Below, piece by piece: positions 5,402 through 32,291 of a DNA stretch of 32,291 nt. The stretch is from a virus (taxonomy: Duplodnaviria > Heunggongvirae > Uroviricota > Caudoviricetes). The notes below the pieces were generated by a model. That model ran no database searches. It saw only the letters and a list, made by a program, of their open reading frames with translations, and was not told the origin of the DNA. The stretch is from positions 1 through 32,291 of IMG/VR virus record IMGVR_UViG_2925939204_000003. One strand, 5' to 3'. Numbering within the stretch: the stretch's first letter is position 1; the number at the start of each line of letters is the position of its first letter. The position numbers and the translations under genes were made by a program.

Positions 5402-5459
5402 AAAAAGGGCGGCAGAGCAGTCACGGAGTAAAACTGATACCGCCAAACGTCACCAGAAA
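5402..5459 (-). ncRNA. dicF: DicF small RNA (53 nt, 5407..5459) plus 3' U-tract of its intrinsic terminator
   Basis: Reverse complement reads UUUCUGGUGACGUUUGGCGGUAUCAGUUUUACUCCGUGACUGCUCUGCCGCCC then UUUUU; lies between ydfC and dicB as in Qin. Confidence 0.8.
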
Positions 5460-9770: not shown

Positions 9771-10457
9771 ATGACCCCAATAAAAATATTTATGACTATT
9801 GCTGATTTCAAACGGCCTAAATTGGAGCTCCCAAACGGGGCAAACAAACTACTACTGCACTCTTGCTGTGCTCCATGTTCCGGTGAAGTGATGGAGGCGC
9901 TTCAGGCCTCGGGAATCGACTACACCATCTTTTTCTACAACCCGAACATTCATCCTCAGAAAGAGTATTTAATTCGTAAGGATGAAAATATTCGCTTTGC
10001 TGAACAACACGGCGTGCCGTTTATCGATGCTGATTACGACACCGACAACTGGTTTGAACGTGCCAAAGGAATGGAATGGGAGCCTGAGAGGGGGATCCGT
10101 TGTACCATGTGTTTTGACATGCGTTTTGAGCGGACAGCGTTGTACGCTGCTGAAAATGGTTTCAGTGTGATCAGCAGTTCACTGGGCATTTCACGCTGGA
10201 AAAATATGCAGCAGGTTAACGAGTGTGGGCGGCGAGCTGTTGCGCATTATCCGGGTATGGTGTACTGGGATTATAACTGGCGCAAGCAGGGCGGCTCGTC
10301 CCGTATGATTGAAATCAGCAAGCGCGAAAAATTCTATCAGCAGGAATATTGTGGCTGTGTGTATTCTCTGCGCGATACCAATCTACACCGCAAATCTCAG
10401 GGACGCCCTCTTATCAAAATTGGCCAACTCCACTACGGAAAAGAAGAGAAGGAGTGA
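9771..10457 (+). CDS. DUF208 family protein, epoxyqueuosine reductase QueH-like
   Basis: Motifs [44 protein letters not shown] match recalled QueH Cys pattern; start may be the second Met (9792). Confidence 0.6.
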
Positions 10458-10584
10458 TTTTATGGATCACCTTTCTGATTGATTTCATATTGGCGAGGTG
10501 ACGTGAGTTAAGTAGAATGGCTGCGGGTGCTTGAGGCTATCTGTCTCAGGCATGAACACTGAAAGGCAGATAGAGAAAAGCCCC

Positions 10585-10646
10585 AGTTAACATTACGCGT
10601 CCGGCAAGACGCTTAACATTAATCTGAGGCTCAATCTATGAACGGC
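10585..10646 (-). ncRNA. Predicted Sok-like antisense RNA of the hok locus
   Basis: Minus-strand promoter -35 TTGCCT (10676..10681) and -10 TAACCT (10653..10658) at 17-bp spacing, placed as in plasmid R1 hok/sok; extent of RNA approximate. Confidence 0.3.
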
Positions 10647-10694
10647 AAATCTAGGTTAGCCTCTTACGTGCCGAAAGGCAAGGAGAAGCAGGCT

Positions 10695-10850
10695 ATGAAG
10701 CAGCAAAAGGCGATGTTAATCGCCCTGATCGTCATCTGTTTAACCGTCATTGTGACGGCACTGGTAACGAGGAAAGACCTCTGCGAGGTACGAATCCGAA
10801 CCGGCCAGACGGAGGTCACTGTCTTCACAGCTTACGAACCTGAGGAGTAA
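10695..10850 (+). CDS. hok: Hok-family type I toxin (51 aa)
   Basis: MKQQKAMLIALIVICLTVIVTALVTRKDLCEVRIRTGQTEVTVFTAYEPEE matches Hok (HokD/RelF-like); SD AAGGAGAAG; conserved upstream leader motif TAGCCTCTTAC. Confidence 0.75.
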   Translation: MKQQKAMLIALIVICLTVIVTALVTRKDLCEVRIRTGQTEVTVFTAYEPEE

Positions 10851-10993
10851 GAGACCAGGCGGGGGAGAAATCCCTCGCCACCTCTGATGTGTCAGGCATC
10901 CTCAACGCACCCGCACTTAACCCGCTTCGGCGTTTTTTCCGTTGATTAACTCTAGTTATTAGAGAACCGAACTTTTATTGATGGGGCAGGGAG

Positions 10994-11386
10994 ATGAAGA
11001 AACTTGTTTTAGTCGCAGGTGTAATGATTGCAACAGTAATGTTGGGAGGGTGTGCAGCAAAGGTCGATCCAGCGTTGAAAGCAGAAGCAATGAAGCCACT
11101 AACATGTAATGATGAAAAGCAATGTGACTTTTATTGGAAACGAGCGCAATTCTGGTTGGCTAATAATTCCTCATGGAAAATTCAAACGGCGACAGACACG
11201 CTAATTTCCACTTATAATCCCTCTCCAAATAGTCCATTCCTCGCTTATCAGGTGAGTAAAATGCCAAATGAAGATGGATCCTCAAGAATTTTCATCAAGC
11301 CTTTTTGCGATAATATGTTTGGCTGTCAACCAAACCCCTATCAGGCAGTTGTTTCCTTTAAAAACTTCGTTAAAACAGGGCAGTAG
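10994..11386 (+). CDS. Putative lipoprotein, unknown function (cargo gene)
   Basis: Signal peptide with lipobox MLGG-C; AT-rich relative to neighbours. Confidence 0.6.
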   Translation: MKKLVLVAGVMIATVMLGGCAAKVDPALKAEAMKPLTCNDEKQCDFYWKRAQFWLANNSSWKIQTATDTLISTYNPSPNSPFLAYQVSKMPNEDGSSRIFIKPFCDNMFGCQPNPYQAVVSFKNFVKTGQ

Positions 11387-14264: not shown

Positions 14265-14340
14265 GGCCCTTTAGCTCAGTGGTGAGAGCGAGCGACTCAT
14301 AATCGCCAGGTCGCTGGTTCAAATCCAGCAAGGGCCACCA
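14265..14340 (+). tRNA. tRNA-Ile2 (anticodon CAU, lysidine type; ileX/ileZ-like)
   Basis: Clean cloverleaf; anticodon loop CUCAUAA; close to recalled E. coli ileX sequence. Confidence 0.8.
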
Positions 14341-14341
14341 G

Positions 14342-14418
14342 CCGCCACTAGCTCATCAGGAAAGAGCGTCAACCCTTTAAGTTGAGTGTGCGAGGTTCGA
14401 GTCCCCGGTGGCGGTCCA
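14342..14418 (+). tRNA. tRNA-like gene, anticodon ambiguous (loop CCUUUAA, nominal UUU); possibly degenerate
   Basis: Acceptor, D and anticodon stems pair; position 33 is C not U; one A-C mismatch in T-stem. Confidence 0.45.
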
Positions 14419-14420
14419 GT

Positions 14421-14496
<76 letters not shown>

Positions 14497-14499
14497 TAT

Positions 14500-14574
<75 letters not shown>

Positions 14575-17570: not shown

Positions 17571-18122
17571 ATGCCATCACGAATCCCACGCGCCTGCCGT
17601 AAGCGTGGATGTGCAGGTACAACCACAGACAGTTCTGGTTACTGCGATAAACATCGTGGCGAAGGATGGGTACAGCATCAACGCGGACTGAGCCGCCACC
17701 AGCGTGGCTACTTCCTGCACTGTTACCGTCAGTTAATGAGGATAGATGTGATGACTAAAAATATCCGTAATCTGGCACTGGCAGCGATGTCGGGGTTTCG
17801 CCATAAAACTGTTGATGTGCCTGAATGGGAAGGGGCAACGGTTGTATTACGGGAACCTTCTGCAGAAGCCTGGTTGCGCTGGCAGGAGATCGTTAAAGCA
17901 AAAGATGATGAGACACCGTTATCCGTTGCGGAGCTCGCCCGCCGAAATCTGGAAGCGGATGTTGAACTGTTCATCGATGTTCTGTGTGATACCGGACTGC
18001 AACCTGTATTTTCAGTGGATGATCGTGAACAGGTGATTGCCGTGTATGGCCCGGTGCATGCGCGGCTTCTTCGGCAGTCTCTGGAACTGATCAGTGATGC
18101 CGGCGAGGTTAAAAAAAAGTAG
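17571..18122 (+). CDS. Tail assembly chaperone G-like, with N-terminal Cys-rich extension; alternative start 17751
   Basis: Directly upstream of tape measure; ends in slippery A-AAA-AAG then TAG; both 17571 (SD GGTGAGG) and 17751 (SD GAGGA) are plausible starts. Confidence 0.55.
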   Translation: MPSRIPRACRKRGCAGTTTDSSGYCDKHRGEGWVQHQRGLSRHQRGYFLHCYRQLMRIDVMTKNIRNLALAAMSGFRHKTVDVPEWEGATVVLREPSAEAWLRWQEIVKAKDDETPLSVAELARRNLEADVELFIDVLCDTGLQPVFSVDDREQVIAVYGPVHARLLRQSLELISDAGEVKKK

Positions 18123-31710: not shown

Positions 31711-32291
31711 TGGCATTCAGAATGAGTGAACAAGCACGGACCATAAAAATTTATAACCTGCTGGCCGGAACTAATGAATTTATTGGTGAAGGTGACGCAT
31801 ATATTCCGCCTCATACAGGTCTGCCTGCAAACAGTACCGATATTGCACCGCCAGATATTCCGGCAGGCTTCGTGGCTGTTTTCAACAGTGATGAGGCATC
31901 GTGGCATCTCGTTGAAGACCATCGTGGTAAAACGGTCTATGACGTGGCTTCCGGCGACGCGTTATTTATTTCTGAACTCGGCTCATTACCGGAAAATGTC
32001 ACCTGGTTATCCCCGGAAGGGGAGTTTCAGAAGTGGAACGGCACAGCCTGGGTGAAAGATGCAGAAGCAGAAAAACTGTTCCGGATCCGGGAGGCGGAAG
32101 AAACAAAAAACAGCCTGATGCAGGTAGCCAGCGAGCATATTGCGCCGCTTCAGGATGCTGCAGATCTGGAAATTGCAACGGAGGAAGAAACCTCATTGCT
32201 GGAAGCCTGGAAAAAGTATCGGGTGTTGCTGAACCGTGTTAATACAACAACTGCACCGGATATTGAATGGCCAGTAGCACCTATAGGGTAA
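31710..32291 (+). CDS. tfa: Tail fibre assembly protein Tfa
   Basis: [37 protein letters not shown] matches recalled lambda Tfa; start overlaps stf stop (TAATG). Confidence 0.85.

Follow-up and report, generated by a model that had tools for sequence, protein, structure and literature searches.

Does a hok gene that stands apart from relBE belong to a complete toxin-antitoxin cassette, and is it unusual in doing so? The question is raised by a 51-residue reading frame on the plus strand (10695–10850) of a 32,291-nucleotide viral sequence assigned to the Caudoviricetes (IMG/VR record IMGVR_UViG_2925939204_000003; the whole stretch is hereafter called the window). A sequence-only reading had described a Hok-family gene in a hok/sok-type locus with a leader of its own, and had singled out the lack of relBE linkage and an in-frame upstream start as oddities. 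Our analysis leaves little doubt that positions 10490–10938 hold a full hok/mok/sok type I toxin-antitoxin cassette, intact and of the hokD/hokW lineage. This is an ordinary copy of a known system, close homologues of which have been characterised experimentally.

The toxin gene and its prophage setting

The toxin gene, preceded by the Shine-Dalgarno (SD) sequence AGGAG at 10681–10685, matches Pfam HOK_GEF (PF01848) over the entire profile (positions 1–42 of 42, E = 2.4e-22) and PHROG 251, ‘MokW-like host killing’ (2.1e-32). These matches place the product, as claimed from the sequence alone, in the Hok/Gef family of small proteins (∼50 residues) with an N-terminal transmembrane helix and a conserved domain. 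It is identical to K-12 HokD/RelF at 50 of 51 residues and to HokW of 933W at 46 of 51, and RefSeq names the identical sequence ‘type I toxin-antitoxin system toxin HokD’ (WP_000813260.1). HokD scored toxic in a survey assay; a bioRxiv survey cites reports that the chromosomal hokA, hokB and hokC do not confer post-segregational killing, so activity of the cassette in the window is not to be assumed. TadA editing of a UACG at Hok codon 47 was considered and rejected, local folding having given no convincing tRNA-like hairpin.

A locus 100% identical to that of the window is present in E. coli EBJ003 (RefSeq record), where hokD alone is named and mok, Sok and the mRNA elements are absent from the annotation. 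The coordinates given here complete that annotation and have little importance beyond it. The EBJ003 prophage that carries this copy is lambdoid and inserted next to tRNA-Ser and mtfA; its gene order is repressor, cro, YdaT-like, replication, DUF977, QueH, hok, lipoprotein, DUF968, RusA, Q, tRNAs and lysis, which puts the cassette in the nin-like part of the early-right operon and in the same orientation. Its immediate neighbours in the window are the QueH gene upstream (9771–10457, plus strand; Pfam QueH, 1.1e-65) and a small lipoprotein-like gene downstream (10994–11386). We are highly confident that the cassette forms a self-contained moron and that its carrier is a lambdoid E. coli prophage of the Qin/Rac-like kind, in whose early-right (nin-like) region it resides. 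At a coverage of at least 80% it is found in 3924 of 5426 complete E. coli genomes (∼72%), at a median of 2 and a maximum of 9 places per genome, and in 74 phage records; in all, some 12,000 copies are spread over 4934 E. coli genomes.

The prophage in the window is morphogenesis-defective. An ORF at 17571–18122 combines 47 HNH endonuclease residues with a tail assembly chaperone, and the window lacks what EBJ003 has between the two, namely terminase, portal, protease and capsid genes; the deletion junction is spanned by none of the complete E. coli genomes in our collection. As the prophage is defective in this way, the role in progeny release shown for hokW cannot apply as such to the window, and prophage stabilisation, or a share in killing upon derepression, are plausible roles here.

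Promoter, leader and a predicted RNA switch

A single sigma-70-like site was returned by a consensus scan of 10300–11100. This hok promoter (10490–10518, plus strand) has a −35 element TTGGCG (10490–10495), a 17-nt spacer and a −10 element TAGAAT (10513–10518). Across loci, conservation of the cassette begins at the −10 and includes the start site, while the −35 sits in the otherwise diverged flank with its TTG kept; at least four of the six TTGACA positions are matched in 39 of 72 sequences, against about 17% expected by chance. Immediately downstream, the Rfam model RF01794 matches over its full length at 10525–10700 (176 nt; 111.9 bits against a gathering score of 59, E = 4.7e-26), so that the conserved structure of a hok mRNA leader is present and the proposal of a hok/sok-type locus with its own leader is upheld. 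RF01794 is called the ‘sok’ model, but we rejected the match as proof of the antisense gene, because it falls on the strand that encodes hok and stops at the hok AUG; what it supports is the hok mRNA leader rather than Sok. If position 1 of this match is taken as the 5' end, the predicted full-length hok mRNA runs from 10525 to 10938 on the plus strand (∼414 nt) and would fold with a minimum free energy of −158.2 kcal/mol (z = −5.3 against shuffles), its 5' end pairing with its 3' end. The 3' end, inferred from a T-run, is uncertain because the terminator is degenerate.

The sequence-only reading had proposed a comparison with characterised loci for the elements fbi, tac and ucb, and folding located all three in agreement with the model for plasmid R1; all RNA structures described here for the cassette are thermodynamic predictions. 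On the plus strand, the translational activator element (tac), GGGUGCUUGAGG, is at 10525–10536; the upstream complementary box (ucb), AAGCCCC, an anti-SD of mok, at 10578–10584; the mok SD region, GAGGCU, at 10626–10631, 7–12 nt upstream of the mok ATG; the downstream complementary box (dcb), which is the motif TAGCCTCTTAC, at 10657–10667, with its pairing part at 10658–10663; and the fold-back inhibitory element (fbi), CCUCAACGCACCC, at 10900–10912, complementary to tac with one bulged C at 10906. In the full-length fold tac is predicted to pair with fbi in a 12-bp helix, a long-range lock of the 5' end onto the 3' end, while the mok SD would be held by ucb (10579–10584). When the mRNA was truncated at four 3' end-points between 10886 and 10897, all four predicted folds paired 10525–10532 of tac with ucb (10578–10584) and moved the mok SD from ucb to dcb (10658–10663). 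In R1, the full-length mRNA is locked by tac and fbi with ucb over the mok SD, and 3' trimming strips fbi to give tac/ucb and mok SD/dcb pairing, the translatable, Sok-accessible form (PMC9841398); the predicted folds of the window reproduce this switch. A stem-loop in the 3' UTR, GGCGGGGGA/UCCCUCGCC (10858–10879, plus strand), is present in both the full-length and the truncated folds and is likely, by analogy, to be the stop point for 3' exonucleolytic processing.

The long-range helix is not peculiar to the window. Of 22 diverse loci, which come from Escherichia, Kluyvera, Citrobacter, Pantoea, Erwinia and Photorhabdus, 20 can form it, and the end of fbi is then 58–70 nt past the hok stop. 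Across 13 distinct sequences 96% of the tac/fbi cells are paired, against 29–63% when the partners are slid, although the 3' partners were taken by a best-duplex search, which biases this count toward pairing. Compensatory changes (U-A to C-G, G-C to A-U) occur at three tac/fbi pairs.

The motif TAGCCTCTTAC, which had been noted from the sequence as conserved in the leader, does lie at 10657–10667, inside the RF01794 match, and occurs once in the window. By itself we rejected it as a significant motif, since 23 of 100 shuffles of the 32 kb contained at least one match with at most one mismatch. Its assignment as dcb follows from the pairing of 10658–10663 with the mok SD in all truncated folds. 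The stretch has an entropy near zero over 70 loci and falls in the only part of the cassette that also matches R1-type plasmid hok loci at the DNA level; on the other strand it comprises the spacer of the Sok promoter and the edge of its −10.

The position of the gene in an operon suggests another way in which hok could be expressed, mainly by read-through from pR past QueH, as in relB-relE-relF, and not from its own promoter under the control of Sok. The gene is co-oriented with the cro, replication, QueH, DUF968, RusA and Q genes, our scan found no terminator-like site in the QueH-hok gap, and hokD of K-12 is co-transcribed with relBE as relBEF (PMC3598666). Against this, conservation of the cassette sets in at the hok −10 and start site whatever gene lies upstream, a TTG-type −35 is found at the right spacing in most contexts, and a switch of the R1 type needs tac at the 5' end, where the RF01794 match starts exactly (10525). 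Moreover, in 933W both hokW and sokW RNAs have been seen on northern blots, with hokW mRNA present before induction (PMC8621323). We therefore consider it very unlikely that read-through is the main route to hok and favour expression from the cassette's own promoter, to which read-through may be added during induction. Such read-through could conceivably interfere with the convergent Sok promoter and so cause loss of Sok on induction; since the 933W locus sits elsewhere in its prophage, we keep this as speculation.

Predicted Sok antisense RNA and its probable promoter

The Sok gene, its promoter and its fold are recognisable by homology to the verified sokW. Transfer of the sokW coordinates annotated in AF125520 predicts a 71-nt antisense RNA on the minus strand (10646–10576), which matches sokW at 65 of 71 nt; the six mismatches all fall within the first 10 nt. 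It would overlap the start of mok by 9 nt, as sokC does mokC in K-12, and its predicted fold (−29.9 kcal/mol, z = −4.9) leaves 14 nt of the 5' end unpaired, ahead of a long hairpin and a U-tail. The minus-strand promoter claimed in the sequence-only reading is present by sokW homology at 10681–10653, with a −35 element TTGCCT (10681–10676), the 17-nt spacer TTCGGCACGTAAGAGGC and a −10 element TAACCT (10658–10653). A generic consensus scan of 10300–11100 found no minus-strand promoter; it missed this one because TAACCT fits the consensus at only three of six positions. The stretch is identical to that of 933W, where the promoter-less construct of Takada et al. (primer YO-421), in which the same −10 hexamer was changed, silenced sokW and unleashed HokW toxicity (PMC8621323). 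The assignment thus draws on homology to the tested sokW promoter and not on consensus strength, and we treat the site in the window as the probable Sok promoter.

The mok reading frame

The mok reading frame (10638–10850, plus strand) has 70 codons. Its ATG lies 57 nt upstream of that of hok, with its own SD at 10626–10631, in frame with hok and ending at the same stop codon. The earlier description of an in-frame ATG at 10638 giving a 70-residue product agrees with the list of ORFs, and the out-of-frame Mok that it gives for R1 is in line with an R1-type plasmid locus, where mok starts 58 nt upstream and out of frame. Its view of the in-frame arrangement as an oddity does not stand. In a survey of 128 usable loci, drawn from one-genome-per-species contigs, viral contigs and annotated records, 110 have an SD-preceded ATG 57 nt upstream and in frame, six have one 58 nt upstream and out of frame, and in 12, three relBE-linked copies among them, no mok start was found; these counts are not independent, because the 80 viral contigs are close relatives. 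An in-frame mok is also found in 933W (mokW/hokW) and in K-12 mokC/hokC, as well as in Photorhabdus, Pantoea, Erwinia and Citrobacter. The curated K-12 annotation has both states, with a common stop codon for mokC and hokC but not for mokB and hokB. Out-of-frame mok is the state of R1-type plasmids, of K-12 mokB and, owing to a 1-nt insertion, of a minority of prophage copies.

A ribosome that starts at mok in the window must produce a 70-residue protein, and it might be argued that this Mok-Hok fusion, a longer toxin with distinct properties, is the relevant product and the 51-residue Hok secondary. The wide occurrence of the in-frame, SD-preceded ATG at −57, from Escherichia to Photorhabdus and Erwinia, speaks for such a fusion. 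It is at odds with the frame-shifted copies, however. In a Rac-type phage copy 93% identical to the window a single inserted T puts mok out of frame, and near-identical copies with a 1-nt insertion (L006, L012, L014, L015, L028 and L029 of our survey) have kept the hok ORF together with a long, overlapping mok ORF. What is conserved of the 19-residue extension, RLASYVPKGKEKQA, falls on dcb, the Sok promoter and the hok SD, whereas mok codons 2–5, which are free of these elements, form the most variable stretch of the cassette. HokW, furthermore, is toxic when expressed from its own ATG (Takada et al. 2021, PMC8621323). We consider it highly improbable that the fusion is the relevant product, and take the 51-residue Hok as the toxin. 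The frame-shifted copies, the overlap of RLASYVPKGKEKQA with RNA and DNA elements and the variability of codons 2–5 together indicate that the translation of mok is selected, and not the sequence of the Mok peptide, which argues for selection on the extension at the RNA or DNA level rather than the protein level.

relBE linkage

The sequence-only reading had contrasted the window with Qin, where hokD belongs to the relBE operon, and both halves of this comparison are accurate. In K-12 Qin relB-relE lies upstream of hokD, co-transcribed with it, and hokD follows directly without a leader or sok; in the window hok stands after the QueH gene, with 237 nt between the end of QueH and the hok ATG and the full leader in place. 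No relBE was found upstream of hok in the window by our survey of contexts, nor is any annotated in the identical RefSeq copy. What is exceptional, though, is linkage and not its absence, relE lying upstream of hok in only four of about 125 loci. QueH is upstream in 12; most surveyed loci have other upstream genes, and the usual downstream neighbour is DUF968 or rem.

Homology between K-12 and the window starts only at 10681, at the hok SD, relB-relE replacing everything upstream. The relBE genes have been described as a secondary insertion into an ancestral hokD of ∼70 codons (PMC6379469). Because the promoter, tac, ucb, Sok and the mok start are all replaced in K-12, the window has the arrangement that the literature calls ancestral, and K-12 Qin is a derived rearrangement. 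The window is thus the un-rearranged state of a locus split by relBE in K-12 Qin, and is useful for comparing the two.

The 3' end of the cassette

The cassette ends in a degenerate intrinsic terminator, ACCCGCTTCGGCG followed by TTTTTT (10920–10938, plus strand). In most loci the canonical terminator is ACCCGC-TTCG-GCGGGT with a U-run (−12 to −15 kcal/mol); in the window the sequence is ACCCGCTTCGGCGTTTTTT, with the GGG replaced by T's, leaving a 3-bp stem. A terminator scan found none at the 3' end of the cassette or between QueH and hok; the former result is explained by the alignment, which shows a mosaic junction where other sequence has taken the place of the canonical hairpin's descending arm. 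The degenerate variant occurs in six of 93 loci, and since all six have the same lipoprotein gene downstream, a recombination junction lies inside the terminator. This change may shift the actual 3' end, and with it the rate at which fbi is removed, and offers a small lead on how 3'-end formation tunes activation.

A damaged terminator in a prophage without terminase, portal and capsid genes invites the reading that the cassette is intact in sequence yet functionally silent, a relic like the chromosomal hok loci of K-12, in a decaying prophage, that would kill under no natural condition. Decay of such loci does occur: one surveyed copy with the same allele (L056) has the mok ATG changed to ATA, and K-12 hokC is adjoined by IS186 and without fbi. 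The elements that are broken in dead copies are nevertheless intact here, namely the promoter, tac, ucb, the mok SD and ATG, dcb, the hok ORF, fbi and the Sok promoter, and identical or near-identical copies recur across several genomes and viral contigs. Terminator damage is unlikely to be disabling, as 933W is also without a canonical terminator yet functional, its hokW-sokW being active from the native prophage position (PMC8621323). On this balance a silent relic seems unlikely, and we prefer the reading of an intact cassette.

Proposed mechanism

Taken as a whole, the hok/mok/sok mechanism set out below very probably applies to the cassette of the window; its first four steps are predictions from sequence and folding that match the R1 paradigm, and the fifth is drawn from homologues. 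The constitutive promoter at 10490–10518 would give rise to the ∼414-nt hok mRNA from 10525, which, with tac paired to fbi and ucb over the mok SD, would be neither translated nor bound by Sok. Slow 3' trimming to the stem-loop at 10858–10879 would then remove fbi, allowing tac to re-pair with ucb and the mok SD with dcb (TAGCCTCTTAC) in a translatable, Sok-accessible form. From the opposite strand the promoter at 10681–10653 would supply an unstable Sok of ∼71 nt, starting near 10646, whose 5' tail would bind the mok start region, block mok translation and mark the duplex for RNase III. Lacking independent access to ribosomes, hok would be translated only when ribosomes read mok; initiation at the in-frame mok start would give a 70-residue N-extended Hok, and the unfolding of the hok SD would give the 51-residue form. 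If the supply of Sok stopped, because the element was lost or the prophage induced (as in hokW-sokW), Hok would enter the inner membrane and depolarise the cell, leading to death or lysis.

A variable patch in the Sok tail

Within a near-invariant cassette only 10631–10651 is strongly variable. The patch comprises the spacer between the mok SD and ATG and mok codons 2–5; on the other strand it corresponds to the unpaired 5' tail of Sok, and on the mRNA to the top of the target hairpin. Some 90 prophage copies show at least eight alleles, of which the window has the second commonest. It is possible, if doubtful, that the patch is under diversifying selection that yields ‘specificity classes’ of non-cross-reacting copies; were this so, the several hok/sok prophages of a genome (median 2, up to 9 copies) could each be addictive independently. 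Alternatively, the patch is merely the least constrained part of the cassette. The two genomes compared each contain co-resident copies with three different Sok-tail alleles, but this supports no inference, because different alleles are expected by chance at these allele frequencies. The allele-specific tail is a small lead on cross-talk between co-resident prophage hok/sok copies.

Comparison with known systems

The closest of the named systems is hokW-mokW-sokW of 933W/Sakai Sp5 (AF125520), likewise in a lambdoid prophage, with 92.8% DNA identity over 10505–10922 of the window. The geometry is the same: mokW (213 nt) and hokW (156 nt) have a common stop, and the 71-nt sokW overlaps the mokW start by 9 nt. 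The hairpin, terminator and promoter of Sok are identical in the two, and the five of 51 residues at which Hok and HokW differ are all C-terminal. In the Sok 5' tail and mok codons 2–5, by contrast, six of 10 nt differ, so that cross-neutralisation between the window and 933W is not assured. The sequence downstream of fbi is also unlike, and the 933W locus lies near the far end of its prophage, beside the very large ORF L0134, whereas that of the window is in the early-right region. The experiments suggested in the sequence-only reading have in essence been done on this 93%-identical hokW-sokW. Transcribed from its own promoter, sokW neutralises HokW, with a partial dependence on RNase III and Hfq; on prophage induction sokW is lost and HokW accumulates in the inner membrane; and deletion of the hokW-sokW locus halves phage release (PMC8621323).

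The hokD (relF) gene of K-12 Qin has a 3' UTR, fbi and canonical terminator homologous to the corresponding region of the window, and similar downstream genes (DUF968/ydfU and a Q-type antiterminator). It differs in having relB-relE in place of the promoter, tac, ucb, the Sok gene and the mok start. The E. coli hokC (gef)-mokC-sokC locus resembles the window in its in-frame mokC (69 codons), which has its stop in common with hokC, and in a leader that matches RF01794, with ∼75% DNA identity to the window. Unlike the window, however, it is a core-chromosome locus beside nhaA and not part of a prophage, its leader hairpin is shorter, and in K-12 and related strains an IS element (IS186 in K-12) lies downstream and the fbi partner is missing.

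The last system compared is hok-mok-sok (parB) of plasmid R1; HokW, the close homologue of the toxin in the window, is only 44% identical to R1 Hok (PMC8621323). The logic predicted for the window is the same, with tac/fbi, ucb, dcb, mok-coupled translation and a Sok in the form of a tailed hairpin, and DNA-level conservation between the window and R1-type plasmid loci extends from dcb to the hok SD. In these loci mok lies 58 nt upstream of hok and out of frame, and is annotated by PGAP as DUF5431, against 57 nt and in frame in the window; and the R1 locus is plasmid-borne, with a proven role in post-segregational killing.

Sequence variation within the cassette

Comparison of prophage copies of the hok/mok/sok cassette reveals that variation is concentrated in a hypervariable patch at window 10631-10651, which differs strongly between copies while the rest of the cassette is near-invariant. 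The patch takes in the spacer between the SD and ATG of mok as well as codons 2-5 of this frame, and corresponds to the 5' tail of the predicted antisense RNA Sok together with the top of its target hairpin. Among the approximately 90 prophage copies at least eight patch alleles can be distinguished, with the allele of the window present in 12 copies and differing from sokW, the characterised homologue of phage 933W/Sp5, at 6 of 10 nucleotides.

The window's patch allele is also carried by a locus at ∼2944 of IMGVR_UViG_2695420597_000005, whose Hok is 100% identical but in which the mok start reads ATA rather than ATG, and whose 3' end has diverged beyond the fold-back inhibitory element (fbi). 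Judged by its sequence, this locus looks like a natural mok-less copy that is probably silenced.

The hok leader and its annotation

The Rfam family RF01794 matches window 10525-10700 on the hok-sense strand, with the match ending at the hok AUG. Although named 'sok antitoxin', RF01794 therefore models the hok leader, and automatic annotation from it would assign Sok to the wrong strand. The same family identifies hok leaders (131–133 bits) in two loci of our survey, L048 (2550-2697) and L050 (2662-2689), from Erwinia sp. CGal63 and Kalamiella sp.; here a CRISPR array (Rfam CRISPR-DR4) precedes the leader, which starts ∼95 nt past the array's final repeat, so that the hok/sok locus immediately adjoins the array.

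Genes flanking the cassette

Directly upstream of hok in the prophage lies the gene for the epoxyqueuosine reductase QueH (9771-10457), which occupies this position in 12 of ∼125 hok loci. On the downstream side, the hok intrinsic terminator (10920-10938) is without its descending arm (GGCGGGTTTTT becoming GGCGTTTTTT), and this loss coincides exactly with the point at which a 130-residue gene (10994-11386; PHROG 16082, function unknown) is joined, a junction seen in 6 of 93 loci in all. The product of this gene looks lipoprotein-like from an LGGC motif spotted by eye, and read-through transcription from hok into it is possible.

The surrounding prophage

The sRNA DicF is encoded on the minus strand at 5407-5458 (Rfam RF00039, 76.7 bits), and homologues of dicB, ydfC and ydfB are annotated close to it in the identical RefSeq copy, marking the prophage as Qin-like. 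The Q antiterminator is followed downstream by four tRNA genes (14265-14574), one with a CAT anticodon and then Lys-TTT, Thr-TGT and Gly-TCC; the first is called Met by ARAGORN but Ile by RefSeq, the latter implying a lysidine-modified CAT anticodon. Rfam RF02111 (IS009) is matched over its full length at 32053-32251 (225.6 bits), at the window's right end and within or beside the tail-fibre region.

In a fused ORF at 17571-18122, the N-terminal 47 residues of an HNH endonuclease run into a tail assembly chaperone, with the junction near 17708. In E. coli EBJ003 these two genes are separated by those for terminase, portal, protease and capsid, which the window prophage lacks, leaving it unable to make heads. 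This junction was not found in any complete E. coli genome of the collection.

Hok codon 47

Codon 47 of Hok is UAC and is followed by G (10833-10836), giving a UACG motif, around which local folding yielded no convincing tRNA-like hairpin. UACG is the motif recognised by TadA, and a recent preprint reports that the hokC, hokD and hokE mRNAs undergo A-to-I editing, converting this Tyr to Cys, as in hokB.
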